Assembly: GCA_036657515.1 (NCBI GenBank)
Contig: JAVXGI010000003.1
Location: 45 to 64,044 of the forward strand
Source of the DNA: Bacilli bacterium
GTDB taxonomy: Bacteria; Bacillota_I; Bacilli_A; RFN20; CAG-826
Length of the DNA: 64,000 bases
Direction of reading: 5' to 3'
A program made the position numbers and the translations under genes. Positions 1 to 14,012 of this stretch are shown here, in pieces (position 1 is the first letter of the stretch; each line of letters opens with the position of its first letter). The notes below the pieces were generated by a model. That model saw only the letters and a list, made by a program, of their open reading frames with translations, was not told the origin of the DNA and searched no databases.

Positions 1-157
1 AAACGAGTTAAGTGGTAACTCAATTATATAAGAGATACTTTTTTTATACATTGATTTTGTCTTACTAAACTTAAAAAAAGCTAAAGATAAATAAAATAAA
101 AATGCCCTTTTTTCTAAGAGAAGAAAAAAAGGCATTTAAATTAAGTTAGAATAAGAT

Positions 158-850
158 TTATAACTGTGTTTTTTTGGTAATAGCAACGTTATATTCTGCT
201 TTTATTGAAACAATTTGTGATGTAGTAGGAGTAACGATACTTACTTCTTCATGAGTAATTAATCCACGATCATTTAATTCGAGTAAATGTTTTGATTCAG
301 TATCTTTAGCTGAAAGATTAGCATCAATTGTTAAGGCATTTCCTTTTTTAGTATAGGTAATACTACCATTTGCAAATGAAGTAGAAAATTCAACAAAAGA
401 GGTAGAATTAAATGATGCTAAGCTAGCAAGGGAAGTCTTTCCTGTTGCAATTTGATTTTGAGCTTCTGGAGCAGAAATAGAAACACAACTACCAGCAAGA
501 GAAGAACACATGTTATATTGTCCATCAGCTTTAAATATTAAAGCTTCAAGAGACATGTTAGGCATTACGATAGATGAATAATAGTAGAGATCTTTAAGAT
601 CAATATGTACAATTTGATTTAAAGTAGATTCTCCATTAGTTATTGTACTAGCAGTATAGACGATAGAATTTAAGGCATCAAATTCTTGTGAAGCATTATA
701 ACTATTTAAAAGAGTTTTAGCCTCTTCTGATGAAATGCTTGATTCACATGATGTTAAGCCTACTGATAAAAGACAAGCAGCGCTTATTAAAAATATTTTA
801 TTTTTCATATAAATACCCCCTATGAATATTAAAGATAATACACCTTTCAA
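158..850 (-). CDS. putative lipoprotein (signal peptide + lipobox LTSC)
   Basis: 230-aa ORF. N-terminal hydrophobic signal ends in L-T-S-C lipobox. No recognisable catalytic motifs. Confidence 0.55.
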   Translation of the reverse strand: MKGVLSLIFIGGIYMKNKIFLISAACLLSVGLTSCESSISSEEAKTLLNSYNASQEFDALNSIVYTASTITNGESTLNQIVHIDLKDLYYYSSIVMPNMSLEALIFKADGQYNMCSSLAGSCVSISAPEAQNQIATGKTSLASLASFNSTSFVEFSTSFANGSITYTKKGNALTIDANLSAKDTESKHLLELNDRGLITHEEVSIVTPTTSQIVSIKAEYNVAITKKTQL

Positions 851-958
851 TTATGCAAATCAAATGAATAAGTTAAGTATTCTTATTAATAATTAGCAAA
901 AAAACAAAAAAAGATATAAAAAGATGAGCACTTTAGGTGCTCATCTTTATTAATAATT

Positions 959-1810
959 TTATTCAAGAGTAGTTTTTTTGTTTTTTATTGGAGAATTATA
1001 AGTAATGTTACCTTTTGCGGAGACTTCACTATTTTGATACATTCCTGTTCCAGCAAGACTAGTTAATAGACCATAATCATTAAAGGTAAATCTTCCTGTT
1101 TCAAGAAGATAGGTTTCATATGATATTTCTGAGGCTACTTCAAATATAATAGAAGAGGCGCCAGTAACATAAAAGTTTAAGTTACTGACGTAAGCATTAT
1201 TTAATAAGAAGGTTCTTATAAATAATGCTTTGAAAGCATTTTGCTTTGAATTAGCGATAAGTGTTTTAGTTTCTTCTTCGGTCTTATTTCCAGTATTTGT
1301 AGCATTAGGATTACTGCTAAGATATTGATATTGATTATCTATTTTATTAACTAGATCAATGAGTTTTTTATCTAATATAAAAGCATATGTTTCCTTAATA
1401 TATGAATACATATAATATTCTCCTGGAGTATCATCTATTTGTTGAATAAATTTATAAGCATATACTCCTTGAATAGCACTAGCTGTACTTTCTTCTTGAA
1501 TAGTATTTATATAGTTAAATGATTCTGTTTCATTAATTCGTGTAAAAGCAATAGCTAATGCTTCTTCATATGTTATTGGTTCTATTTTATTTGGATCATG
1601 ATCACCAATTGAGACAAAGGAACTAGGTATTGAAATAGGAGTAGTAATACTAGTTGTTGAAGAAGGCTTACTAGAAGTACTAGTAGTAGTAGTTGAAGTA
1701 GAAGAAGACGAAATATTACTAGAAGAACTAGTAGTAGAACTAGTATATCCAGTACACGAGGTTATCATTGCTAAAGGAGCAATTAACGTAAATAATAATT
1801 TTCTTTTCAT
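959..1810 (-). CDS. Ser/Thr-rich (mucin-like linker) lipoprotein
   Basis: 283-aa ORF. Signal peptide with ITSC lipobox, followed by ~45 aa that are almost pure S/T (TSSTTSSSSNISSSSTSTTTTSTSS...), then a globular domain. Confidence 0.55.
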   Translation of the reverse strand: MKRKLLFTLIAPLAMITSCTGYTSSTTSSSSNISSSSTSTTTTSTSSKPSSTTSITTPISIPSSFVSIGDHDPNKIEPITYEEALAIAFTRINETESFNYINTIQEESTASAIQGVYAYKFIQQIDDTPGEYYMYSYIKETYAFILDKKLIDLVNKIDNQYQYLSSNPNATNTGNKTEEETKTLIANSKQNAFKALFIRTFLLNNAYVSNLNFYVTGASSIIFEVASEISYETYLLETGRFTFNDYGLLTSLAGTGMYQNSEVSAKGNITYNSPIKNKKTTLE

Positions 1811-1919
1811 AATATAATTCCTTATATCTAAATTATATAGTTTTATTTACTAAAATGGTATTTTTTTGATTGAATTGTAAATAAAATTATTGTATATTAA
1901 ATAAGCGCAAAGCGTATGT

Positions 1920-1996
1920 GGGCCTTTAGCTCAGTTGGTTAGAGCGCGTCCCTGATAAGGACGAGGTCGATAGTTCGAGCCTATTAAGGCCCACCA
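1920..1996 (+). tRNA. tRNA-Ile (anticodon GAT)
   Basis: Cloverleaf read by eye: acceptor GGGCCTT/AAGGCCC, D-arm AGCTCAGTTGGTTAGAGC, anticodon loop CTGATAA, T-arm GGTTCGAGCC, encoded CCA. Confidence 0.85.
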
Positions 1997-2041
1997 TTAA
2001 ATTTGCAACATACTATTTCTTAGAGATTGAATGAGTTAAGT

Positions 2042-2116
2042 GGACATTTAGCTCAGCGGGAGAGCGCTTCCTTCACACGGAAGAGGCCATAGGTTCAATC
2101 CCTATAATGTCCACCA
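2042..2116 (+). tRNA. tRNA-Val (anticodon CAC)
   Basis: Acceptor GGACATT/AATGTCC, anticodon stem CTTCC/GGAAG with loop TTCACAC, T-arm GGTTCAATCC, encoded CCA. Confidence 0.75.
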
Positions 2117-2122
2117 ATATAC

Positions 2123-2198
2123 GCCGTCTTAGCTCAATTGGCAGAGCAATTGATTTGTAATCAATAGGTTGTTGGTTCGATTCCGATAGACGGCACCA
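2123..2198 (+). tRNA. tRNA-Thr (anticodon TGT)
   Basis: Acceptor GCCGTCT/AGACGGC, anticodon stem ATTGA/TCAAT with loop TTTGTAA, T-arm GGTTCGATTCC, encoded CCA. Confidence 0.8.
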
Positions 2199-2207
2199 GA
2201 AAAAAAC

Positions 2208-2241
2208 AATAAATCGATCCTTACGAAGGATCGATTTTTTA
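2208..2241 (+). terminator. rho-independent terminator after tRNA cluster
   Basis: Hairpin AATCGATCCTT-ACGA-AGGATCGATT followed by a T-run. Confidence 0.7.
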
Positions 2242-2504
2242 TATTTTACGTTTATTTTCTAACGTCATAAATCGATTTTGATACGTAAACGTAAAAGATA
2301 TTTATACTCGAACCCACGAACTAAATTTAAAAAGAAAAAAGATTTAAAACAAATAACGTATAAGTAAAAGTAAATTGAATTGAAAATATTTAACTTAAAA
2401 GTTTAATATTTTCAAAATAATAAAACTAGATTATAATGGTATTATTCAAAGTGAAAACATGAGTTATTAAAGTTTGTTAAATAAATAATTTTAGGTAAAG
2501 AAAG

Positions 2505-3155
2505 ATGAATAAAGAATGGTCGGAAAAAAATAAAGAAGTAAAATTATTGTTAAATAATAGAGTTTCTTTTAATAAAGGAATTAAAGAATTAATAAAGTTA
2601 AGAACTCTATTATTTTATTATTGGTTTGATTCTATGAAAGAATTATCAAATGATGATTATTCAAAACAACCTTTTATTGCTAAAGAAGGATATGAATCTA
2701 AAACAATTTCTTATTCTATTTATCATGTATTTAGAATTGAAGATATTGTATTAAATACATTAATAAAAAACAAACAACAAATTTTTACGAGAGATAATTA
2801 CCAAAATAAAATGAATTCATCAATTATTACAACAGGAAACGAATTAAAAAAGGAATGTATTTTTAATTTTTCTAAAAAATTAAAAATAGAAGAATTGTGG
2901 AATTATGCAAAAGAAGTATTTGAAGAATCAAATGAACGGTTATCTTTACTTACGTTTGAAGATTTAGGAATAATATATTCTGAAGAAGATAAGAATAGAA
3001 TTAGAATAACTAATACAATAGCTCCAAGTGAAATGTGGTTGATTGACTATTGGTGTGATAAAAATATTAAAGGGTTATTAGGAATGCCGTTTTCACGTCA
3101 TTATATAATGCATTTAGAAGCATCGCTTAGAATCAAGAATAAGATTGTTAGATAA
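2505..3155 (+). CDS. hypothetical protein
   Basis: 216-aa ORF with no motif I can assign. AT-rich, preceded by a long non-coding stretch. Confidence 0.4.
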   Translation: MNKEWSEKNKEVKLLLNNRVSFNKGIKELIKLRTLLFYYWFDSMKELSNDDYSKQPFIAKEGYESKTISYSIYHVFRIEDIVLNTLIKNKQQIFTRDNYQNKMNSSIITTGNELKKECIFNFSKKLKIEELWNYAKEVFEESNERLSLLTFEDLGIIYSEEDKNRIRITNTIAPSEMWLIDYWCDKNIKGLLGMPFSRHYIMHLEASLRIKNKIVR

Positions 3156-3441
3156 ATAAAGTCATTAATATAAAACAAACACTTTAAGGATAAATCAAGG
3201 GATTATAAATTGAGTGGTTATGTTTAAACTATTTGTTATTTGTAATTACATGTATATAAGAAACGTCTATGAGGACTGGTGCTGATTGCATTGTTGATAT
3301 TAACAGGGAAAAGAAGTTTTATTAATTTAATTTATTTTTTTAATGAAAGACAGTGTTTCTATTTTAATAACGTTAAACTTAGTATCTAACCTCAATTAAA
3401 TAACGTAAACATACATCAATTAAATAACGAAATTATACGTA

Positions 3442-3469
3442 TTGACATATCTTGAATAGGTTCTATAAT
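3442..3469 (+). promoter_or_regulatory. sigma-70 type promoter (TTGACA-16bp-TATAAT) with long structured 5' leader, copy 1
   Basis: Consensus -35/-10 hexamers read directly. The ~100-nt leader carries an 11-bp inverted repeat, ATTTGAAAATA (3494-3504) / TATTTTCAAAT (3529-3539). The whole ~190-bp block is repeated at 4477-4645. Confidence 0.6.
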
Positions 3470-3569
3470 ATTTTAAAAGAAGACATTTTATTATTTGAAA
3501 ATATTGGCTTGTAATTAAATAATGGCTCTATTTTCAAATAATATATTTTTCAATTAAAAGGAGAAGAAT

Positions 3570-3923
3570 ATGGATGTTAAAGAACATAAATTTAAAATAG
3601 GAGATGCAGTAGTCCTAAAGGAAAGAGACCCTAAGTGGGATGAAGAAGTTATTATAGAACTAATCGTTGGTTATGTCGAGGATCCTAAACTTACGTATAT
3701 TAGCGATATAGAACGAGCTGAGTTATTAGAATCAAATTATGAGTATGTAATTGAATTTGTTGGCTGTGATTGTGGATGGGGCACACTAAGCAACAGACAA
3801 TATGTCAAAGAGTCACAAATTTATAAATGTAAATATAATTCTATCGAAGACTATGAAGATTGGGAATTTGTAGAGGATGCACGAGAAATACTTAGAAAAC
3901 GTGAAAATTCAAATAACAAATGA
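3570..3923 (+). CDS. small acidic Cys-containing protein (117 aa), paralog copy A
   Basis: Good RBS (AAAAGGAGAAGAATATG). It is 117 aa with a CDCGWG motif and an N-terminal KFKIGDAV motif. A near-identical paralog lies at 6346-6699. Confidence 0.7.
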   Translation: MDVKEHKFKIGDAVVLKERDPKWDEEVIIELIVGYVEDPKLTYISDIERAELLESNYEYVIEFVGCDCGWGTLSNRQYVKESQIYKCKYNSIEDYEDWEFVEDAREILRKRENSNNK

Positions 3924-3955
3924 TTCAAAATATCAAAAGTTGTCCAATAAAATAG

Positions 3956-4210
3956 TTGCTTATTAAAGATGATTCTAAACCAGCATATTTATTTTTGCTT
4001 TTTCATACATTATTATTTTGTCATTTGTGTAAGAATGGCGAAGAATACAATAATGAATACATAGAGTGGGTTAAAAAAGTGTTTACTGATATGTTTCCTG
4101 AGAATATTAATGTAGTATACTTTGCTATTTATACACTTAAAAATAATGAAGTAGTAGAAGTTTATAGACCTGTTTTGCATAAAAAAGATTTTGAAATTCT
4201 AACCACTTGA
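3956..4210 (+). pseudogene. 3' gene fragment homologous to the C-terminus of the 127-aa protein at 7035-7418 (orphan cassette)
   Basis: No RBS. The last ~50 codons (IEWVKKVFTDMFPENINVVYFAIYTLKNNEVVEVYRPVLH.KDFEI) are nearly identical to the 3' end of 7035-7418, while the N-terminal part is unrelated. Confidence 0.55.
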
Positions 4211-4476
4211 ATGAGCAAACTTTAATGTAAAGCGTCAGTTTTGCTATTTTTTATTTTTCTCATAACAAATTTAATAGCGAACCTGTTTTTTTAGGTCTTA
4301 TCTATAGCAAAAAACACTTTAAACTAAAAACATAAAAGGTATTTATGTTCAAATAAAATATAATAATGCATGTTTTTCAAAAAAAGCATGAAAACAACTT
4401 TTTTACTTTATAATTTTGTAATTTACATCTGTTTCACATTTTATGGTTTGATTCTTATTTAATTTGTAATGAAATT

Positions 4477-4645
4477 GTTGTCTAACCTCACCTCAATTAA
4501 ATAACGAAATTATACGTATTGACATATTTAAAACACATTCTATAATATTTTAAAGAAGACATTTTATTATTTGAAAATATTGGCTTGTAATTAAATAACG
4601 GCTCTATTTTCAAATAATATATTTTTCAATTAAAAGGAGAAAAAT
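4477..4645 (+). promoter_or_regulatory. second copy of the promoter + structured leader (TTGACA 4519-4524, TATAAT 4541-4546)
   Basis: Near-identical to 3381-3569, including the 11-bp inverted repeat (4569-4579 / 4605-4615) and the RBS. Here it drives the unrelated 473-aa gene. Confidence 0.6.
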
Positions 4646-6067
4646 ATGGGATTTAAGAAAAAATTATTGTTTCTAACTTGTTTAGCATTTACATTTATTA
4701 CAGTATGTAGACCGATTGCTTCTTCAAATGAATATGAGAAAGTTGAGAAAAATTTACTTACAGAAGTAAAAAGAGCAATTAACGTTTCTAATGAAGAAGA
4801 TATTAATAATCCTGATTTTATTTTCGATAATTCAATTAATGAATACAAAAAACAATTTGCAGAATATATTAATATAACTGGTTTGAATGTTAGCGAAAAG
4901 GACGAAATAGAACTTCCAAACTTTAATTTATCTTATATTGCACCAAATTACAGTGATGTGATGTTAGGATATCAAACAAAACTTGAAAATAGTTTATCTA
5001 CAGAAGATCTAGTTAAGTATGAAGAACTTAGACATCAAGATTTTAATTTTGATAGATATGTTGCTTTAAATTGCGTTAAATACGAAAATTTAACGCCAAC
5101 CTTAAAATATAGCCATAATATTTGTCCTATTCAACCGATTAATCCTGTTACTCCTTTAAATCCTGCAATCAATGTAGGCGATGTTTCGACTAGAGCGGTT
5201 GTTGCTGGAACTTCAGCGATAGTTTCGATTTTAACTATGGCCGGTTTAGGACAGACTGCAATTACAGCTTTTACCGCCTGTATTTCAACAATTACTGCAG
5301 GTCTTTCTACAAGCTGGATTCCATTTATTGGTTGGATACTTGCTATTGCAATAGTCACTGGAGCTTTAATTGCTTTAGTGGTAATTATTGTTCAAAATTG
5401 GGAAGCTATTTGCGACGCGATGGAACAAATTAAATCATGGTTTTTGGAACAATTTGCAAGCTTTGCTGCTTTAATAACTTCATTTTTTGCTGATGCAATC
5501 GCAAAAGGAATTGAATCAACAATTGCTGGAAGAGATCACATAGGAAATAAAGAATTGGTATGGAAATCAAAAACTGTTGAAAAAGAGAGCGCTATTGCAT
5601 TGACAGAATCGTTAAGAAGAGATAAAAAAAGAATATTTTTAATGAAAAATGTTAGAAAGAAAGTCAATCCAATTGATAATGGGATGTATGTTAATTATTG
5701 GACCACTGATGGATACTATGATGAGGATTTTGTAACATCATTTAATCTTTATGATTACGGTATAAGTACATATACTTGGTACAATGATAATGCAAGGCGT
5801 CTTATGCTTAATGGAAGTACGAAAATACAATATAATCCCACTGAATATACAATTATGTATCATAATTTTTTAATAAATGATACAGCACTAAATGGATGGA
5901 ATCACTATCATATTTATGGAGTAAAATTAAATAGTGAGACTAATCAAAAGGAATATAACGATTTACACGGAGATTTACTTCATAAAGCTCATTCATTCTT
6001 TGGCCTTATGTATCTTAAATCTATTGATGGACAAATTGAGACACAAACTTTTCCAAAAAATCCATAA
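4646..6067 (+). CDS. secreted/membrane protein: signal peptide, N-domain, two hydrophobic helices (Gly/Ala/Thr-rich hairpin), aromatic His-rich C-terminal domain
   Basis: 473-aa ORF. N-terminal signal (possible lipobox ITVC), ~70-aa hydrophobic segment AVVAGTSAIVSILTMAGLGQTAITAFTACISTITAGLSTSWIPFIGWILAIAIVTGALIALVVIIV, and a C-terminal region rich in Y/W/H (HYHIYGVK, LHGDLLHKAHSFFG). Confidence 0.65.
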   Translation: MGFKKKLLFLTCLAFTFITVCRPIASSNEYEKVEKNLLTEVKRAINVSNEEDINNPDFIFDNSINEYKKQFAEYINITGLNVSEKDEIELPNFNLSYIAPNYSDVMLGYQTKLENSLSTEDLVKYEELRHQDFNFDRYVALNCVKYENLTPTLKYSHNICPIQPINPVTPLNPAINVGDVSTRAVVAGTSAIVSILTMAGLGQTAITAFTACISTITAGLSTSWIPFIGWILAIAIVTGALIALVVIIVQNWEAICDAMEQIKSWFLEQFASFAALITSFFADAIAKGIESTIAGRDHIGNKELVWKSKTVEKESAIALTESLRRDKKRIFLMKNVRKKVNPIDNGMYVNYWTTDGYYDEDFVTSFNLYDYGISTYTWYNDNARRLMLNGSTKIQYNPTEYTIMYHNFLINDTALNGWNHYHIYGVKLNSETNQKEYNDLHGDLLHKAHSFFGLMYLKSIDGQIETQTFPKNP

Positions 6068-6345
6068 TTAAATATAGTTTAAACATATGTGGTAGTGTAC
6101 ATCAAGAAAAATGAGAAATACAACGAATTCAATTATGGTGTATAAATTGTTATCGACTATGTTAAAAAAAACATGAATATATGATTATACTGCGAATGAA
6201 TATTTTGAACTTACAAAAGATATACAGGTTAAATTTCAAAAAAGAAAATATAGATCTACATAAGTTTCAATATCATTAATACGATTAATTATTAAAAGAT
6301 TTAAGCATAATACTTATTATTACGAAAATTTAAAAGGAGAAGAAT

Positions 6346-6699
6346 ATGGATGTTAAAGAACATAAATTTAAAATAGGAGACGCAGTAATCCTAAAGGAAA
6401 GAGACCCTAGTTGGAATGAAGAAGATGTTATAGAAATGATTGTTGGTTATGTTGAGGATCCTAAACTTACGTATATTAGTGATAGAAAAAGAGCTGAGTT
6501 ATTAGAATTAAATTATGAGTATGTAATTGAATTTGTTGGCTGTGATTGCGGATGTGGCACACTAAGCAACAGACAATATGTCAAAGAGTCACAAATTTAT
6601 AAATGTAAATATAATTCTATCGAAGACTATGAAGATTGGGAATTTGTAGAGGATGCACGAGAAATACTTAGAAAACGTGAAAATTCAAATAACAAATGA
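6346..6699 (+). CDS. small acidic Cys-containing protein (117 aa), paralog copy B
   Basis: About 90% identical to 3570-3923, with the same RBS but different upstream sequence. Motif is CDCGCG. Confidence 0.7.
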   Translation: MDVKEHKFKIGDAVILKERDPSWNEEDVIEMIVGYVEDPKLTYISDRKRAELLELNYEYVIEFVGCDCGCGTLSNRQYVKESQIYKCKYNSIEDYEDWEFVEDAREILRKRENSNNK

Positions 6700-6731
6700 T
6701 TCAAAATATCAAAAGTTGTCCAATAAAATAG

Positions 6732-6986
6732 TTGCTTATTAAAGATGATTCTAAACCAGCATATTTATTTTTGCTTTTTCATACATTATTATTTTGTCAT
6801 TTGTGTAAGAATGGCGAAGAATACAATAATGAATACATAGAGTGGGTTAAAAAAGTGTTTACTGATATGTTTCCTGAGAATATTAATGTAGTATACTTTG
6901 CTATTTATACACTTAAAAATAATGAAGTAGTAGAAGTTTATAGACCTGTTTTGCATAGAAAAGATTTTGAAATTTCGACAACTTGA
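6732..6986 (+). pseudogene. second copy of the 3' gene fragment (orphan cassette)
   Basis: Near-identical to 3956-4210. No RBS. Confidence 0.5.
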
Positions 6987-7034
6987 GCAAGTTCATCCAT
7001 TGAGTCCTCAAAATTAACTATTGGAGGTAGTTTT

Positions 7035-7418
7035 ATGAAATTTAAATATGGCGACTTAGTATATAGCACAGAATTAAGAAAAATAGAACATCTTTTTCCA
7101 ATGCTTGTTATTAAGTTTTACAGTAAAAAAGATAAGTATTTATGCTTAACTGCATCAAGGTATTCTCCAGGTGATGAAGGCACTATTTTTTATCTTGTGG
7201 CCGAAAGTGAATTAACTATGTTTGAACATTTTGACGGCGAGGATGGCGAAGAATTCAATGATGATCATATAGAGTGGGTTAAAAAAGTGTTTACTGATAT
7301 GTTTCCTGAGAATATTAATGTAGTATACTTTGCTATTTATACACTTAAAAATAATGAAGTAGTAGAAGTTTATAGACCTGTTTTGCATAGAAAAGATTTT
7401 GAAATTCCAACAACTTGA
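7035..7418 (+). CDS. 127-aa protein; N-terminal KFKYGDLV motif, C-terminal domain shared with the two upstream fragments
   Basis: RBS GGAGG precedes the ATG. The C-terminal 50 aa are identical to the fragments at 3956-4210 and 6732-6986. The N-terminus resembles the N-terminus of the 117-aa proteins (KFK-GD-V). Confidence 0.65.
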   Translation: MKFKYGDLVYSTELRKIEHLFPMLVIKFYSKKDKYLCLTASRYSPGDEGTIFYLVAESELTMFEHFDGEDGEEFNDDHIEWVKKVFTDMFPENINVVYFAIYTLKNNEVVEVYRPVLHRKDFEIPTT

Positions 7419-7621
7419 ATGAGCAAGCCTTAATTTTTTTAGTTCTTTTTAATAAAAAACTCTTTTAACTAAAAACATAAAAGATACATGTGCTGTGAAA
7501 GTATCAGATTAGACACATAAAAATAATACTGTAAACTATCTTTCTAAATTTTATGAGTTAAGTATGACTAATGGTTATTTCATTTTTAATAGTAAAAAGA
7601 CATATTAACTTATTTATTATT

Positions 7622-8533
7622 CTATTTCGCATTCTTAATAAATTTATCTATTTCATCATTACATTTAATTGATTCTTTTTTGTTAGGAGCAGTTACATTA
7701 AAAACATGTATTGCATCAGGTGATGATTCATAATAAAACGAAAAAGATATATCATCTTTAATGAATAATTCTTTTAATTTAAATGCTTGCTCACCTACTA
7801 CGCTATCACCCTTACTTGTTACTATTAATATATTAGTTACTTTATTCATTAAAGATGATATATCTTCAAAAGAATAAGCATTCTTTATTGATTTATTCTT
7901 ATTAATCATTAAGTTATTAAACTTATTAACAGCTATTTTATTTAAGATATTATGATGTAACATAATTTTCATATCACGAACAAATGGAGCTGGATGATTT
8001 AATATAAGATTTTTAATCTTAATATCAATATGTTTTACTTTATATAAAGCTTGAAGTTCATTATTTTCATTAATAATATCAAATAATAGTGCAAGATGTC
8101 CACCAGCACTATTTCCTGCTAATGTAATATTATTTTTATCATATGAATATTTGTTATTTAATTTAACAATGTTTGAAATAGAAGCAAAGACATCTTGCAC
8201 CATTTCACTAATTCCTACTTCTGGAATTAATCTATAATTAATAGAAACTACAAGATAGCCTCTTCGTGCAAAATCCATTGCGTATAATCCATTAAGATTT
8301 TCATCTCCATAAATCCATGCTCCACCATGAAGCACGATAAGAAGAGGCTTTAAATCTTCTTTGTTTCTATTAATATAGAAGTTTTGTTTAAGAAGAGTTG
8401 AAGTGGTAGAAAACGTTTCAGGAAAGACATCAATATCTTTAACGTTAGATTGAGACTTTATAAATGGTTCATCATGGATTCTCATTTTTTCTTTAAGATC
8501 TAGAATTTGCTTTGTTAAGTATTTATTAAACAT
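7622..8533 (-). CDS. alpha/beta-hydrolase fold esterase/lipase (Aes-like)
   Basis: HGGAW oxyanion motif (LHGGAWIYGD), nucleophile elbow GNSAGGH, and a later His. Confidence 0.7.
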   Translation of the reverse strand: MFNKYLTKQILDLKEKMRIHDEPFIKSQSNVKDIDVFPETFSTTSTLLKQNFYINRNKEDLKPLLIVLHGGAWIYGDENLNGLYAMDFARRGYLVVSINYRLIPEVGISEMVQDVFASISNIVKLNNKYSYDKNNITLAGNSAGGHLALLFDIINENNELQALYKVKHIDIKIKNLILNHPAPFVRDMKIMLHHNILNKIAVNKFNNLMINKNKSIKNAYSFEDISSLMNKVTNILIVTSKGDSVVGEQAFKLKELFIKDDISFSFYYESSPDAIHVFNVTAPNKKESIKCNDEIDKFIKNAK

Positions 8534-8621
8534 ATTGTTACCTCTTTATTATTATAAATAATTAGAATGTTAATACAAATGAATGTAAATATATTATTAA
8601 TTGTGGTATATTATTTAAGTC

Positions 8622-8705
8622 GCTGGTATGGCGGAATGGTAGACGCGCTAGACTTAGAATCTAGTGGGTAATCCCGTGCAAGTTCAAGTCTTGTTACCAG
8701 CACCA
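8622..8705 (+). tRNA. tRNA-Leu (anticodon TAG), long variable arm
   Basis: Acceptor GCTGGTA/TACCAGC, anticodon stem CTAGA/TCTAG with loop CTTAGAA, long extra arm, encoded CCA. Confidence 0.8.
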
Positions 8706-8717
8706 ATAAATAATAAA

Positions 8718-8746
8718 ACGAACTCATTAGATGGGTTCGTTTTTTC
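8718..8746 (+). terminator. rho-independent terminator
   Basis: Hairpin AACGAACTCAT-TAGA-TGGGTTCGTT followed by TTTTT. Confidence 0.65.
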
Positions 8747-8771
8747 TTTAAAGTTATTTTTATTAACGGGA

Positions 8772-9011
8772 TTACCTTTTTGTTTGTTTATATATTTTAA
8801 TAATAACAATTATAATTCCGATTAAACTAGATATAGATAAAATTGTTAAGATGATTACTGTTATTATTGCATCAGGTAGTCTCATAAAAGAATTCATAGG
8901 TGAAAAAGTAACAACGTAATGAATCATCGGAACAAGACAAAAGGTTGATAGTGCAAAAAGAATTATCAAGAGTACTAAGAGGGTTATTTTTAAACCAAGT
9001 TTCTTTTTCAT
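8772..9011 (-). CDS. small two-TM membrane protein
   Basis: 79 aa, almost entirely hydrophobic. Start overlaps the stop of the upstream gene. Confidence 0.45.
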   Translation of the reverse strand: MKKKLGLKITLLVLLIILFALSTFCLVPMIHYVVTFSPMNSFMRLPDAIITVIILTILSISSLIGIIIVIIKIYKQTKR

Positions 9012-9493
9012 TTTGTACTTTCCTTATATATTTTTGAGTAGGAAATTAATTCGGGCATCTTATTAAAAGCTGAGAATAAATCTCCATTATTTAACAAACC
9101 TTTTTCATAAGATTCAAGTGGAGTATAAAAAATATCGTCATCAAATTTATATAACAAAAATTTAATTTTATATTTAAAAGAATAAGTAAAAGTAGCGAAT
9201 TCTAAATTCCAATTCTTAGTAGTTTTATCAATTTCCCACGCTACAAAAAAACAGGTATCTTTATCTTCGGATTGAATTCTTGAAATAAATTTTGAATACT
9301 CTGTATCTTCAACTTCGGCTTTTGGGTTGGTTGGAAGAATATACTTATTATAATAAGATCTTAACATTGTAAAATTCTCAAAAACAGATGGCGTTACATC
9401 ATCGATTGGTTTAAATATTATAGGTCCACATGATGAAAGTGACAAAGTAATTGCAAATAAAATATAAAATTTTATTTTAAAAGGATTTTTCAT
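9008..9493 (-). CDS. putative lipoprotein
   Basis: 161 aa with signal peptide and LSSCGP lipobox. Confidence 0.5.
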   Translation of the reverse strand: MKNPFKIKFYILFAITLSLSSCGPIIFKPIDDVTPSVFENFTMLRSYYNKYILPTNPKAEVEDTEYSKFISRIQSEDKDTCFFVAWEIDKTTKNWNLEFATFTYSFKYKIKFLLYKFDDDIFYTPLESYEKGLLNNGDLFSAFNKMPELISYSKIYKESTK

Positions 9494-9671
9494 AAGTAGA
9501 TACCTCTAATAAAATTATAGGCTTAACTTATTTATTTGACAACTGAATAGGCATTAAACCAATAATATTATTCTTCAAAAGAGAGACTATCACTATTTAA
9601 TAATTTATCTTATTATTTGTTATTCTAATTATGTATTTTTTATTTAGTGGTTGATATATAATAAATAAGAT

Positions 9672-10556
9672 ATGAAAGGCCTATTACTTACTAATGCATT
9701 TGCTATAAATGAACATATAGAATTTCAAAGTAACTCATTTATTAAAGAGTTTAATCTTTTAGGTGTGGATCTTATTCATAAGACTAATAGTGAGTTATTA
9801 GTATATATAAATAATGATGGAGATATTGCTAAAAGATTTAACGAATACGATTTTATCTTGTATTTTGACAAAGATAAATACATTGGTAAAATGCTTGAAA
9901 AAGTCGGTTGTTCACTAATTAATTCTAGTTCTAGTGTTGAAGCGTGTGATGATAAGATGCTTACTCATATATTACTTGCTAATAACGGTATAAAGATGCC
10001 TAGAACTATCTCTTATCCATTATGTTACGAGTACCACAATAATATAGAGCCCGTTATAGCAAGTGTCTTAAAAGCCTTTAATTTTCCTTTTATCATTAAA
10101 GAAAACTTTGGTTCACTTGGTAAACAAGTATATCTTGTTAAAAATAAAGAAGAATTAATGTTATTAGAAAATAAGTTACGTTATGTTCCACATTTATATC
10201 AAGAATTTATCAGTGAATCAATTGGAGTTGATTATCGATTAATATTAATTGGAAACAAAGTAGTATCTGCAATGAAAAGAAGCAATGATAGTAATTTTGT
10301 TGCAAATATTGGATCTGGAGGTAAAGGAGAAACCTATATTCCTGATACAAGAATGAAAGAGATTGCTATTAAAGCTTCTAAAATATTAGGATTAGATTAC
10401 TGTGGAATTGATTTTGTTATCAATAGTCTTGGGGAACCAGTCTTATTAGAAGTAAATTCAAATGCTTTCTTTAAAGAAATAGATAAAATAAATAATATTA
10501 ATATACCAGAGATTTTTGCTAAATACGTAATTGAAAAAGTCAAAAATATAGATTAA
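9672..10556 (+). CDS. ATP-grasp family ligase (RimK / glutathione-synthetase-like)
   Basis: 294 aa. ATP-grasp signature region (GSLGKQVYLV, DYRLILIGNKVVSAMKR, LEVNSNAFF). Followed by a terminator hairpin. Confidence 0.6.
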   Translation: MKGLLLTNAFAINEHIEFQSNSFIKEFNLLGVDLIHKTNSELLVYINNDGDIAKRFNEYDFILYFDKDKYIGKMLEKVGCSLINSSSSVEACDDKMLTHILLANNGIKMPRTISYPLCYEYHNNIEPVIASVLKAFNFPFIIKENFGSLGKQVYLVKNKEELMLLENKLRYVPHLYQEFISESIGVDYRLILIGNKVVSAMKRSNDSNFVANIGSGGKGETYIPDTRMKEIAIKASKILGLDYCGIDFVINSLGEPVLLEVNSNAFFKEIDKINNINIPEIFAKYVIEKVKNID

Positions 10557-10713
10557 TTGGTATTTTTTACCGATTAATCTATATTTTTTATTGATAAAGT
10601 CGTTGTAACGAAAAATTGTTTCAAATTTTTACTTTTTTTGTTGAAAATCTTTTTTAGTTATTATATAATTTAATCGGTATTAAGATACCGAATAACTTGA
10701 AAGGACAAAGATA

Positions 10714-11355
10714 ATGGAAAAGAAAGATTTACTATCTCATAACTGTATAACAAGACTTCCTTTATACCTTAATTATCTTAAATCACTTGATTATGATGAT
10801 CTTACATTAGTATCAACCCAAAGTATTGCTACTGGATTGAATATTAATGCCGAAGTGGTTAAAAAAGATATTGCGGCTATTTCTTCTGAGAAAGGAATGC
10901 CAAGAAAAGGTAGAAGTGTAGTTTTATTAGTTAAAGATCTAGAAAAATTTCTAGGAGCAGGCTGTCAAATTAATGCTGTATTAATAGGAACAGGACATCT
11001 TGGAAAAGCACTTCTAAATTATGATGGATTTAGTGAATATGGATTAAACATTATTGCAGCTTTCGATTCTGATCCGCGATGTCGAGAAATAGATGTCTGT
11101 GGTATTAATGTCTACTCAATGAGTTTATTAGACAATATTATCAAAGACAAACATGCGGAAATCGGAATTATTACAGTTCCAAGCCACGCTGCACAAAGCG
11201 TAGCGGAAAAACTGGTACAAGCTGGAATAAAAGCAATATGGAATTTTGCTCCAATTAATCTTAATCTTGATCCTAGTATTATTGTCGCTAATGTTAATAT
11301 GGCAAGTTCACTTGCAGTATTATCACATCAACTTTATCTTAATAATCTGAAATAA
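10714..11355 (+). CDS. rex: redox-sensing transcriptional repressor Rex
   Basis: 213 aa. N-terminal winged-helix (RLPLYLNYL) and Rossmann GTGHLG motif. Sits immediately upstream of adhE, the classic Rex target. Confidence 0.8.
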   Translation: MEKKDLLSHNCITRLPLYLNYLKSLDYDDLTLVSTQSIATGLNINAEVVKKDIAAISSEKGMPRKGRSVVLLVKDLEKFLGAGCQINAVLIGTGHLGKALLNYDGFSEYGLNIIAAFDSDPRCREIDVCGINVYSMSLLDNIIKDKHAEIGIITVPSHAAQSVAEKLVQAGIKAIWNFAPINLNLDPSIIVANVNMASSLAVLSHQLYLNNLK

Positions 11356-11372
11356 AAAGGAGAACATTAAAT

Positions 11373-14012
11373 ATGTCCGAAAAAAAGAATGAATCAGTTC
11401 AAACACCAAACGAAGAGACAGTAAAAACTATTAACACACTTGTTGAAAATGGATTAAACGCTCTTGAAGAATATAGCGAACTTAATCAAGAACAAATTGA
11501 CTTCATCGTTGCAAAATGTAGCGTTGCTGCATTAGATAAACATGGAGTTCTTGCTAAAGCTGCAGTAGATGAAACAGGACGTGGCGTATTTGAAGATAAA
11601 GCAACTAAAAACTTATTTGCTTGTGAATACGTTGTTAATTACATGAGACATATCAAAACAGTTGGGATTATCGATGATAATCCTGTAACTGGAATAGTCG
11701 AGATCGCAGATCCAGTCGGTGTTGTATGTGGAATTACTCCAGTTACAAATCCTACTTCAACTGTTATTTTTAAAGCATTAATTTGTATTAAAACTAGAAA
11801 TCCTATTATTTTTGCTTTCCATCCTAATGCTCAACAATGTTCTAAAATGGCTGCTCAAGTAATGCTTGATGCTGCTATTGCAGCAGGAGCACCAAAGAAT
11901 TGTATTCAATGGGTTGAAAAACCATCAATGGAAGCAACATCTTTATTAATGAATCATCCAGGAGTTGCAACAATTCTTGCTACCGGCGGCAACGCCATGG
12001 TTAAAGCAGCTTATAGTTGTGGAAAACCTGCACTTGGCGTTGGAGCCGGAAATGTTCCTACTTATATTGAAAAATCAGCTGATGTTAAACAAGCATGTAA
12101 CGATATTGTTATGTCAAAAGCCTTTGACAACGGAATGGTTTGTGCCTCAGAACAAGCAGCAGTTATAGATAAGGAAATATATAAAGAGTGTATTTCTCAA
12201 TTTAAACTTTATGGAGTTTATTTTGTTAACGCTGAAGAAAAAGCTAAATTAGAGAAATTTATGTTTGGTTATGTTGCATTTGAAGCAGGAGTTCACGCTG
12301 GAACAGTTAATGCTAATGTTGTTGGTAAAAAAGCATCATGGATTGCTGAACAAGCCGGATTTGAAGTCCCAGAAAATACAATTATTTTAGCTGCTGAAGT
12401 TAAAGAAATTGGACTTAACGAACCATTAACAAGAGAAAAATTATCACCAGTTTTAGCAATTATTAAATCCAATTCAACTGAAGAAGGAATGAAATATTCT
12501 GAACAAATGGTTGAACTTAATGGACTTGGACATAGTGGAGCAATCCATACTGCCTCAAAAGAACTTGCTGAAGAATATGGTTTAAGAGTAAAAGCTTGTA
12601 GAATTATTTGGAATTCACCAACAACATTTGGTGGTATTGGAAATATTTATAACTCATTTGCTCCTTCTATGACACTTGGATGTGGATCATATGGTCATAA
12701 CTCAGTATCAGGAAATGTAAGCGTATATAATTTAATGAACATTAAAAGAATTGGTAAAAGGAGAAATACAATGCAATGGTTTAAGGTTCCATCAAAAATT
12801 TACTTTGAAAGAAATTCAATTGAATATTTAAGAACATGTAGAGATGTTGAAAAAGTATTTATCGTAACAGATAGAATGATGGTTGATCTTGGATTCGTTA
12901 ATAAGATTACAGATCAATTAAACTTAAGAAGAAATGCTGTAAAAATACAGTTGTTCTGTGACGTTGAACCAGATCCTGATATATCAACAGTTAGACGTGG
13001 CGTTCAATTAATGGAATCATTTAGACCAGATACTATTATTGCTTTAGGTGGAGGATCCGCCATGGATGCTGCTAAAGGAATGTGGTTATTCTACGAACAT
13101 CCAGAAGTTAACTTTGATGACTTAAAACAAAAATTCATGGATATTCGTAAAAGAGCATTTAAATATCCAGAATTAGGAAGAAAATCTAAATTAATTTGTA
13201 TTCCAACTACCTCTGGTACTGGAAGTGAGGTTACGCCATTTGCTGTTATCTCCGATAAAGCAAATTGCAAAAAATATCCTTTAACTGATTATAGTCTTAC
13301 TCCAACTGTTGCTATTGTTGATCCAGAATTTACAACTAATCTTCCTGCAAAAGTAACAGCTGATACCGGAATGGATGTTCTTACTCACGCAATTGAAGCT
13401 TATACTTCAGTTCTTGCAAGTGACTTTACTGATGGACTTGCACTTGAATCAATTAAATTAGTCTTTAAATTCCTTGGTCGTTCTTATAAAAACGGAGCTA
13501 ATGATCCAGAAGCAAGAGAAAAAATGCACAATGCTGCAACTATTGCAGGAATGGCATTTGCTAACGCTTTCTTAGGAATGTGCCATGCTATGGCACATAA
13601 GTTAGGTGCTCAATTACACTTACCTCATGGCTTATTAAACGCTATTTTATTACCTTACGTAATTAGATATAATGGACAAATCATACCAGGAAAGGTAAGT
13701 GTCTGGCCAAAATATAATCATTATGAAGCATCTGAAAAATTTGCTGAAATCTGCCGTGTTGTTGGTATTCCTTATAAGTCTCTTGCTGATGCTCCAATTG
13801 CTTTAGCAGATGCTGTTACTAAACTTGGAGAAGAAGTCGGATTAACAATGCACTTTGATGCATATTATCCAGATGAAGCAGATTATATGAAAAATATTGA
13901 ACAAGTCGCTTATCTTGCTTATGAAGATCAATGCACACCTGCTAACCCACGTGTTCCAATGGTTGAAGACATGATTAAGATTATGAAAGACGCATATCAC
14001 GGTAACAAATAA
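11373..14012 (+). CDS. adhE: bifunctional acetaldehyde-CoA / alcohol dehydrogenase
   Basis: 879 aa. N-terminal ALDH domain and C-terminal Fe-ADH domain (GGGSAMDAAK, histidine cluster HAMAHKLG). Confidence 0.92.
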   Translation: MSEKKNESVQTPNEETVKTINTLVENGLNALEEYSELNQEQIDFIVAKCSVAALDKHGVLAKAAVDETGRGVFEDKATKNLFACEYVVNYMRHIKTVGIIDDNPVTGIVEIADPVGVVCGITPVTNPTSTVIFKALICIKTRNPIIFAFHPNAQQCSKMAAQVMLDAAIAAGAPKNCIQWVEKPSMEATSLLMNHPGVATILATGGNAMVKAAYSCGKPALGVGAGNVPTYIEKSADVKQACNDIVMSKAFDNGMVCASEQAAVIDKEIYKECISQFKLYGVYFVNAEEKAKLEKFMFGYVAFEAGVHAGTVNANVVGKKASWIAEQAGFEVPENTIILAAEVKEIGLNEPLTREKLSPVLAIIKSNSTEEGMKYSEQMVELNGLGHSGAIHTASKELAEEYGLRVKACRIIWNSPTTFGGIGNIYNSFAPSMTLGCGSYGHNSVSGNVSVYNLMNIKRIGKRRNTMQWFKVPSKIYFERNSIEYLRTCRDVEKVFIVTDRMMVDLGFVNKITDQLNLRRNAVKIQLFCDVEPDPDISTVRRGVQLMESFRPDTIIALGGGSAMDAAKGMWLFYEHPEVNFDDLKQKFMDIRKRAFKYPELGRKSKLICIPTTSGTGSEVTPFAVISDKANCKKYPLTDYSLTPTVAIVDPEFTTNLPAKVTADTGMDVLTHAIEAYTSVLASDFTDGLALESIKLVFKFLGRSYKNGANDPEAREKMHNAATIAGMAFANAFLGMCHAMAHKLGAQLHLPHGLLNAILLPYVIRYNGQIIPGKVSVWPKYNHYEASEKFAEICRVVGIPYKSLADAPIALADAVTKLGEEVGLTMHFDAYYPDEADYMKNIEQVAYLAYEDQCTPANPRVPMVEDMIKIMKDAYHGNK

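Follow-up and report, generated by a model that had tools for sequence, protein, structure and literature searches.

What kind of locus sets two nearly identical copies of a small acidic protein gene on either side of a large secreted-type protein, and lets each copy be followed by the same broken gene end? The question is raised by positions 3381 to 7418 of a 64,000-nucleotide (nt) stretch of contig JAVXGI010000003.1 (assembly GCA_036657515.1) from a Bacilli bacterium of the CAG-826 lineage; the whole of this stretch is called the window below. A reading made from the sequence alone, without database searches, had taken the arrangement for a recombining toxin/immunity or orphan-cassette locus. 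Comparison with related loci supports that view, as the large protein is modular, its tail is paired with the small gene behind it, and orphan cassettes occur. We consider it probable that the locus is a polymorphic toxin/immunity-type module, belonging to a previously undescribed family of uncultured gut Bacilli with low guanine plus cytosine (GC) content.

A modular protein and its small partner

The large protein, its parts and the small gene behind it are as follows (aa, amino acids; ORF, open reading frame).
4646–6067, plus strand: gene for the 473-aa putative toxin (ORF listing; 56 homologs; no Pfam match).
4646–4720, plus strand: putative signal peptide, residues 1–25 (read from the sequence).
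5192–5515, plus strand: Gly/Ala/Ser/Thr-rich hydrophobic helical module, residues 183–290 (PHROG matches, family conservation).
5507–6064, plus strand: variable C-terminal domain, residues 288–473, a putative toxic enzyme (invariant residues).
6346–6699, plus strand: 117b, a type-D gene, the first small gene 3′ of the toxin gene, for the putative cognate immunity protein (type-D profile, E = 8e-44).

Seventy related loci were gathered from genomes, metagenomes, viral contigs and exact-protein look-ups, and correlations were computed on 29 dereplicated loci from similarity matrices with a Mantel test. When the 117-aa protein was used as query in a word-indexed homology search, a strain variant of 93% identity was all that came back; divergence among the small proteins exceeds what such a search can bridge, and they were therefore typed with local profiles built from the related loci. 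In every locus with enough sequence the gene directly 3′ of the big gene encodes a small protein without a signal peptide, and in some loci the two genes overlap. Types A, B, C, D (117-like), E (127-like) and E2 are distinguished among the small proteins, with profile comparison probabilities of 86% for D and E, 97% for E and E2 and 96% for A and C. Tail subtype and small-protein type correspond one to one across about 60 loci: subtype 1 is followed by E2, 2 by E, 3 and 4 by D, 5 by B, 6a by C and 6b by A. Similarity between C-terminal domains tracks similarity between small proteins (r = 0.81, Mantel p about 2e-4, an approximate value), whereas the N-terminal part correlates poorly with the small protein (r = 0.20) and with the C-terminal domain (r = 0.05). 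It follows that tail and small gene travel together, and do so without regard to the N-terminal part.

The boundary between the two parts is sharp. Among relatives the N-terminal part is 45–68% identical as against 21–44% for the C-terminal domain, and conservation is highest in the hydrophobic block (60–73% mean pairwise identity) and stands at 23–33% past residue 300. The switch lies at residues ~295–300, just past a GxES motif, and the closest relative of the window protein, P0002, is 68% identical to it up to residue ~300 and 27% beyond. P0002 has a subtype-2 tail, and its relative L038 has a type-E gene next. The window tail belongs to subtype 4, nearest to subtype 3, and has a type-D gene next, as in L036, L037, L003, L024 and L039–41; type-D genes follow subtype 3/4 tails in every related locus. 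A sharp N/C junction, a co-varying downstream small gene and orphan or extra cassettes downstream, all of them features of polymorphic toxins, are found in this family. Unrelated toxin folds drawn from a shared pool, a further such feature, are not, as all tail subtypes form one homologous family. A C-terminal profile search of 1.84 billion representatives gave 56 proteins, every full-length one with the same architecture, together with many tail tips of ~80 aa. Since all tails belong to one family in a single architecture, the diversity would be the divergence of one toxin fold with its partners, and not a mix of unrelated toxin domains.

From its N-terminus the 473-aa protein consists of the signal peptide, a helical N-domain (residues ~33–160), a variable Pro-rich linker (161–182) that is absent from many homologs, the hydrophobic module, made up of amphipathic as well as hydrophobic helices, and the C-terminal domain. 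The N-terminus reads as Sec-signal-like, with a basic n-region, a hydrophobic core of 13–14 residues and an A-x-A-like site, and export is probably Sec-dependent. The secreted-type protein with hydrophobic helices and an aromatic, His-rich C-terminal domain that the sequence-only reading had described between the two copies is thus present. Structure prediction for the whole protein gave an AlphaFold2 model (on 41 homologs) with a pLDDT of 84.5 and a pTM of 0.79, in which low confidence or disorder is limited to residues 21–32 and 168–183 and the C-terminal domain is alpha/beta. The 56 homologs of full-length type are 33–53% identical, all unnamed, and come from uncultured Bacilli, “Mollicutes”, Onthovivens and Enteromonas metagenome-assembled genomes (MAGs); the full-length architecture is conserved at 430–490 aa across the family. 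It had been said beforehand that none of the proteins could be placed in a nameable family, and this held: Pfam, NCBIfam and PADLOC gave no above-threshold match for the locus proteins or for ten small proteins of related loci, the PADLOC defense models matched none of six proteins, PDB profile searches with the toxin family and the type-E family returned nothing meaningful, and the family is not described in the libraries and literature searched. The C-terminal profile search also brought up internal-deletion derivatives (P0068, P0073, P0075, P0079, P0086 and P0091), in which the signal peptide runs in frame into the C-terminal domain, whole or in part, and both the N-domain and the hydrophobic module are left out; these may have arisen by decay or may be short forms that are secreted.

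The C-terminal domain holds 7 His and 26 aromatic residues, and Y376, T377, A383, H420, H422, H449, F452 and P470 are invariant in 41 of 41 aligned members (codons of the histidines at 5903–5905, 5909–5911 and 5990–5992). In a model of the domain alone (pLDDT 92.1) a single long strand carries the H-x-H pair, and the third His comes just ahead of a later strand. This H-x-H…H geometry resembles a three-histidine metal site, and we infer that the domain is a putative metal-dependent enzyme with cytoplasmic action. It has neither a family match nor a fold match in the PDB.

The hydrophobic module has relatives of another kind. The PHROG matches of residues 183–291 are to tail tape-measure families only (phrog_58, E = 1.9e-6), and phrog_28 is matched in 30 of the 41 members of the family, the best E being 6e-8. 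The match is lost in the reversed sequence and in eight shuffled versions, so that residue order matters and not composition alone. The protein itself is no tape-measure protein as these are defined, by a long coiled coil (more than 600 aa) whose gene stands between those for the tail chaperone and the distal tail of a phage: it has 473 aa and a signal peptide. In Tde1, a type VI secretion system (T6SS) DNase, a tape-measure-like glycine-zipper region is needed for the protein to cross into target cells (Ali et al. 2023, PMC10240207). The two proteins share a small-residue-rich, tape-measure-like hydrophobic segment on a toxin domain that acts in the cytoplasm, putatively so here; they differ in that Tde1 is a T6SS effector with an N-terminal segment and an Ntox15 DNase domain, whereas here the segment is central and comes after an exported N-domain. 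On the strength of the tape-measure similarity and of this experimental precedent, we propose that residues 183–290 form a putative membrane-insertion part that would aid passage of the C-terminal domain across the target membrane.

The small proteins are acidic (pI 4.6–5.0). Their fold gives only sub-threshold Pfam similarities, to Chromo_shadow (E = 0.1) and to SH3_2 and Tudor_5 (E = 0.05–0.15), and a PDB profile search returned one SH3-containing adaptor protein at a weak E of 0.87. The 117- and 127-aa proteins are distantly homologous (hhalign probability 86% over 86 columns), in line with the shared KFK-GD-V motif noticed in the sequence. In a Candidatus Enteromonas MAG (L003, 3216–3887) the D and E types are fused in a 223-aa protein encoded right after the toxin gene, with a type-B gene next, which suggests that 117-like and 127-like types can act as a single polypeptide.

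Duplicated genes, leaders and fragments in the window

The remaining features of the locus are these.
3392–3405 and 3416–3429, plus strand: two copies of TCAATTAAATAACG upstream of promoter 1 (repeat family D6, sequence reading).
3442–3469, plus strand: promoter 1, TTGACA-16 nt-TATAAT, 12/12 consensus, before 117a (promoter scan).
3570–3923, plus strand: 117a, gene for a 117-aa type-D small acidic protein, putative immunity (ORF listing; type-D profile, E = 6e-43).
4032–4210, plus strand: fragment A, the 3′ 58 codons and stop of a type-E (127-like) gene (matches type-E profile positions 66–120 only).
4211–4341, plus strand: stretch 3′ of copy 1, with homology to the sequence behind the 127-aa gene, 7419–7486 (alignment).
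4519–4546, plus strand: promoter 2, 12/12 consensus, before the 473-aa gene (promoter scan).
6808–6986, plus strand: fragment B, a second type-E 3′ fragment (repeat finding, alignment, type-E profile).
7035–7418, plus strand: gene for the intact 127-aa type-E small protein, putative orphan immunity (full-length type-E profile match, E = 9e-42).

The two 117-aa genes lie in a duplicated, gap-free block of 657 nt that is 96.5% identical (3554–4210 and 6330–6986). Their products, previously put at about 90% identity, share 91.5% of their residues: there are 10 residue differences in 117 and 18 nucleotide differences in 354, with a ratio of nonsynonymous to synonymous divergence (dN/dS) of 0.39. 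All 18 nucleotide differences fall in 3605–3779, and the copies do not differ over the next ~400 nt, a pattern suggestive of recent gene conversion between them.

Behind each copy stands a 3′ gene fragment, as the sequence-only reading had found, without a ribosome-binding site and without a 5′ half (the mechanically called ORFs that contain them are 3956–4210 for A and 6732–6986 for B). The fragments were said to be identical to the C-terminus of the 127-aa protein, which overstates the likeness: the type-E 3′ repeat, present in three places (4032–4226, 6808–7002 and 7240–7434), is 94–96% identical in DNA, and the fragment peptides match the 127-aa C-terminus at 51 of 58 and 52 of 58 residues. 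Between fragment A and the 127-aa gene dN/dS is about 0.8. The 5′ half of the 127-aa gene has no similarity to the region upstream of 4032 (local alignment score 18, shuffle mean 19), so the fragment is truncated at a sharp breakpoint. The 108 nt at 3924–4031 were also considered as a diverged type-E 5′ half and rejected, their similarity being not above that of shuffled controls. Fragment A thus reads as a recombination scar or a pseudogene.

Behind copy 1 the 3′ flank resembles the one that follows the 127-aa gene and not the one that follows fragment B: 4032–4226 aligns with 7240–7434 (94%) and 4264–4341 with 7409–7486 (78%). The same holds for a spacer motif that had been assigned to each 117-aa copy. 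The motif, CTTTAAACTAAAAACATAAAAG, does occur twice, at 4317–4338 and at 7463–7484, with 21 of 22 positions in agreement; its second site, however, follows the 127-aa gene and not the second 117-aa gene.

A further duplication, which the sequence-only reading had not recorded, involves the promoter and a leader of ~100 nt (3413–3573 and 4490–4649, 94% identical). Promoters 1 and 2 are the sole 12/12 promoter matches in 3150–7650, and between the promoter-1 leader, 3470–3569, and that of the 473-aa gene the identity is 94%. A third copy of the 14-mer TCAATTAAATAACG lies upstream of promoter 2 at 4493–4506; this element may be a putative operator or UP element common to both transcription units. 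As an Rfam scan of 1–12000 found tRNAs only, the duplicated leader belongs to no known family of riboswitches or other RNAs. The two duplications, that of the leader and that of the 117 block, have 20 nt in common, TTAAAAGGAGAA(G/A)AATATGG, a block which forms the ribosome-binding site and start of 117a, of 117b and of the 473-aa gene, and it is at this block that 117a is joined to a toxin-type promoter and leader.

The 127-aa protein appears to have no matching tail at hand. It is most closely related to the cognate partners that subtype-2 toxins have in L051, L052 and L055, and to an extra gene in L008, and six-frame profile searches of 2200–8700 and of the whole 64 kb found no second toxin, subtype-2 tail or tail remnant in the window. 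As its relatives pair with a tail that the window lacks, the 127-aa protein is a putative orphan partner for a subtype-2 (FKHFHN) tail.

Strain comparison, orphan cassettes and genomic context

An independent MAG contig, L028, has the same arrangement and is 99.5% identical across the locus; the arrangement is therefore not an assembly artifact. Four or five MAGs of the same species, at 98–99.7% identity, keep the gene order. Within this fixed order, change is gathered mainly in the cassettes: in L029 and L033 fourteen substitutions relative to the window are clustered in fragment B (6821–6954), which indicates gene conversion, and in L028 two positions of 117a coincide with positions at which 117a and 117b of the window differ. 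Short-read contigs often stop inside the repeats (L029, L033). The locus is thus structurally stable within the species, with gene conversion between repeats. Between species the module lies in different genomic places and bears different tails. The variability across related genomes that the sequence-only reading had anticipated is accordingly seen in tails and cassettes between species, and not in gene order among close strains. Contig L033 also lacks 8900–9546, just beyond tRNA-Leu, a segment that holds the gene for a 79-aa membrane protein and most of that for a 161-aa lipoprotein.

Orphan and decaying cassettes are spread across the related loci. L021 has the order toxin (6b)–A, orphan subtype-2 tip–E, A, orphan 6b fragment–A, the 6b fragment beginning just ahead of a conserved YTWYNNTAKR motif. 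In L003, L008, L016, L059, L064 and L066 the cognate small gene has extra, non-cognate ones behind it, and in L008 the extra type-E ORF runs into a 6a-like tip. The window itself holds the orphan type-E gene and two type-E fragments without an orphan tail remnant. In L013, L019, L022, L023 and L024 the big gene is disrupted by a frameshift or nonsense codon and the small gene is intact; these disruptions may be either real pseudogenes or MAG assembly errors. Their frequency is an indirect hint, the sole one, that the tail may be toxic and its cognate partner protective. L013 has a single in-frame TGA near position 933, at a nearly invariant Ser (ST*WIP), and L019, L022, L023 and L024 are frameshifted. 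Taken from these sequences, orphan cassettes and decay are what would be expected of interbacterial toxin loci and seem hard to reconcile with a housekeeping membrane protein.

The genomic position of the module differs among genomes, often beside restriction or defense genes, recombinases or a terminase, and several loci have defense-type neighbors (GmrSD, DNA methylases, SLFN/AlbA_2, AAA_14/DUF4143). A tblastn search of 50,697 phage records and 72,556 plasmids gave no match, and only two IMG/VR contigs, L069 and L070, carry the module. L070 has a terminase large subunit gene (2352–4010) upstream of the module, and L069 two large serine recombinase genes (8030–10892) downstream. These neighbors suggest that prophages or integrative elements may now and then bear the module at their edge.

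In the window the surroundings are chromosomal, with 29.8% GC, the standard code and housekeeping neighbors (AdhE, hydrogenases, PcrA, LigA, GatAB). A code in which TGA is read as Trp was considered, as the small genes end in TGA, and rejected because table 11 leaves long housekeeping ORFs of 879, 912 and 736 aa uninterrupted. The locus does adjoin tRNA genes, as had been noticed, with tRNA-Ile, Val and Thr at 1920–2198 and tRNA-Leu at 8622–8705. Between the tRNA cluster and the cassette lies a gene for a 216-aa protein (2505–3155), also kept in strain L028, with weak similarity to the DinB superfamily and mycothiol transferases (E from 1e-4 to 0.2). Minus-strand lipoproteins, both with a lipobox Cys, are predicted at 158–850 and 959–1810, the latter with a long Ser/Thr-rich linker in a style typical of wall-less or Mollicutes-like Bacilli. 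On the other side, a minus-strand gene for an alpha/beta-hydrolase (BD-FAE esterase, 7622–8533) contains a perfect 25-nt inverted repeat whose arms, 7744–7768 and 7842–7866, are separated by 73 nt and are both coding. Its chance occurrence is very unlikely at 30% GC; close strains are colinear, and inversion was not seen.

Explanations and known systems

For a toxin/immunity module of this kind, the toxicity, neutralization, topology, delivery route and chemistry that we infer may be pictured as follows. The Sec signal peptide would export the conserved helical N-domain of the 473-aa toxin, and the tape-measure-like module would insert into a membrane, presumably that of the target cell, and carry the C-terminal domain across. 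This domain of ~180 residues would be the toxic part, acting in the cytoplasm, and each signal-less small acidic protein would bind and neutralize the matching tail subtype, 117b being the cognate immunity protein. The 127-aa protein may serve as orphan immunity against the subtype-2 toxins of competing strains. A fuller account, tentative and to our minds possible rather than probable, sees in the family lineage-restricted, Sec-exported antibacterial toxins in which a tape-measure-derived or convergent module carries a new-fold, three-His enzyme without a dedicated secretion machine, the tails and beta-barrel-like immunity proteins having co-diversified into at least six recombining specificity groups.

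The repeats in the window would fit a simple history. The two 3′ fragments would be scars of recombination between tandem type-E genes, and 117a a second copy, what is left of a duplicated operon whose toxin gene was removed when the common ribosome-binding blocks recombined; left behind in this way, 117a would be driven by its own copy of the toxin promoter. In the simplest sequence of events, an operon of toxin, 117 and two E genes would have lost the 5′ half of its first type-E gene, after which the whole unit would have been duplicated. The upstream copy would then have lost its toxin gene between the two ribosome-binding blocks, and its fragment and 127-aa gene would have collapsed into one through recombination in their 3′ halves.

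Several observations weigh against a polymorphic toxin module. A strongly hydrophobic 21-residue helix (230–250) follows the exported N-domain and would normally act as a stop-transfer anchor, leaving the C-terminal domain in the cytoplasm of the producer, from where it would not readily reach a target cell. The likeness to tape-measure proteins is modest, with E values of 0.002–0.07 only for the segment in isolation. Classical polymorphic toxin families share domains among delivery systems; here the C-terminal domain was never found on other delivery domains in the profile search of 1.84 billion representatives, nor an N-terminal part with an unrelated tail among the 56 homologs. In the window, 117b starts 278 nt downstream of the toxin gene and does not abut it, and gene order is fixed among the four or five MAGs of the species. 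The loci behind the Mantel test are not phylogenetically independent, and the host organisms are uncultured.

The stop-transfer expectation is also the main support for another explanation, in which the protein belongs to a membrane-anchored toxin–antitoxin or abortive-infection system, with the N-domain outside and the effector inside, restrained by the small protein until an envelope or phage-injection signal releases it. The simplest topology, with a signal peptide, an exported N-domain and one strong transmembrane helix, places both the tail and the signal-less small proteins in the cytoplasm; the defense-type neighbors of several loci would suit such a role, and the tape-measure resemblance could reflect contact with incoming phage tails. 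Arrays of non-cognate small genes and orphan pairs of tail and small gene, however, typify interbacterial toxin loci and not toxin–antitoxin or abortive-infection systems. The gene order, toxin and then partner, speaks against it as well, as do the free shuffling of tails with respect to the N-terminal part and the lack of a PADLOC match, and we regard this system as unlikely. The tape-measure matches could instead be taken at face value, making the locus a prophage remnant, the 473-aa protein the product of a decayed gene for a tape-measure or tail protein, and the small genes phage morons without a joint function. Two IMG/VR contigs do carry the module, next to a terminase gene in one and serine recombinase genes in the other. 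Yet the resemblance is limited to ~100 residues of a protein with a signal peptide and a conserved architecture of 430–490 aa, the phage and plasmid records hold no match, and no phage genes were found around the locus, whose neighbors are tRNA, esterase, AdhE and other housekeeping genes; a prophage remnant is very improbable.

Co-variation by itself demonstrates an interaction between tail and small protein, and not toxicity. The 473-aa protein could on this ground be a non-toxic surface or membrane protein, such as a receptor, an adhesin or a signaling protein, whose tail co-evolves with a small chaperone, adaptor or regulator and whose duplications are neutral. One fold for all tails and a strongly conserved N-terminal part would be natural in such a protein, and the dN/dS of the 117a/117b pair indicates purifying selection. 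Its patchy distribution, with a different position in each genome, would not, nor would big genes that are often disrupted beside an intact small gene, or orphan tail tips with extra non-cognate partners; the invariant His triad points to catalysis and not to scaffolding. A non-toxic role is slightly less probable again than a membrane-anchored defense system. The polymorphic toxin/immunity module remains the reading that we prefer.

Polymorphic toxin systems with orphan cassettes have reportedly been described in CdiA-CT/CdiI and Rhs-CT/RhsI. These share with the present family a conserved N-terminal part, a sharp junction and a variable C-terminal domain, a cognate small gene that lies directly downstream and travels with the tail, and downstream orphan tails with their own immunity genes, with recombination at conserved sequence. 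Unlike CdiA and Rhs, the 473-aa family has neither filamentous hemagglutinin nor YD repeats, lacks VENN and PxxxxDPxGL motifs and stands outside the context of a type V, type VI or type VII secretion system (T5SS, T6SS, T7SS); its members are short (about 450 aa), have a putative Sec signal peptide and bear a single tail family that is not shared with other delivery systems. MafB/MafI of Neisseria, a Gram-negative genus, is also comparable. MafB has a Sec signal, a conserved N-domain of unknown role and a variable C-terminal toxin with a downstream immunity gene; its loci hold alternative C-terminal/immunity cassettes, its tails are unrelated domains, and its secretion after the Sec step is not understood. 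The window family resembles it in the predicted Sec signal, the conserved N-domain, the variable tail, the downstream immunity gene and the alternative cassettes, and differs in its hydrophobic tape-measure-like module and single tail fold. The Pfam scan of the locus proteins did not return a MafB-type family.

A single fold that diversifies with its partners is known from the nuclease colicins E2, E7, E8 and E9 and their Im proteins, in which one fold with conserved catalytic residues forms specific cognate pairs. The present tails, likewise of one fold, would have co-diversified with small, acidic, putatively cytoplasmic partners. The folds are unrelated, and colicins, unlike this family, are plasmid-borne, have lysis genes and possess receptor-binding and Tol/Ton translocation domains. 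As for the small genes, the T7SS toxin loci EsaD/EsaG and TspA/TsaI of Firmicutes contain tandem non-identical immunity paralogues, among which homologous recombination gives rise to deletions, hybrids and copy-number changes (Garrett et al. 2022, PMC9484751). The 117a and 117b copies, the type-E fragments and the gene-conversion tracts of the window are like these immunity strings. Pfam scans of the proteins tested found no T7SS genes and no LXG or WXG domains, and the 473-aa protein differs from the T7SS toxins in its export by a predicted Sec-type signal peptide.

The window documents how immunity-only cassettes and orphan immunity genes may originate, when exchange takes place at a ribosome-binding block that several genes have in common or between paralogues in tandem. 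If the proposed module is borne out, it would offer biochemistry a new toxin fold with an evident catalytic triad, together with new immunity families, and would provide a simple model for how a tape-measure-like segment moves a protein domain across a membrane. The uncultured Bacilli that carry it are common in animal and human guts, where competition among them is almost unstudied. It would mean that these small-genome bacteria wage warfare at the level of strains with a compact, Sec-dependent weapon, and need no large secretion apparatus to do so.

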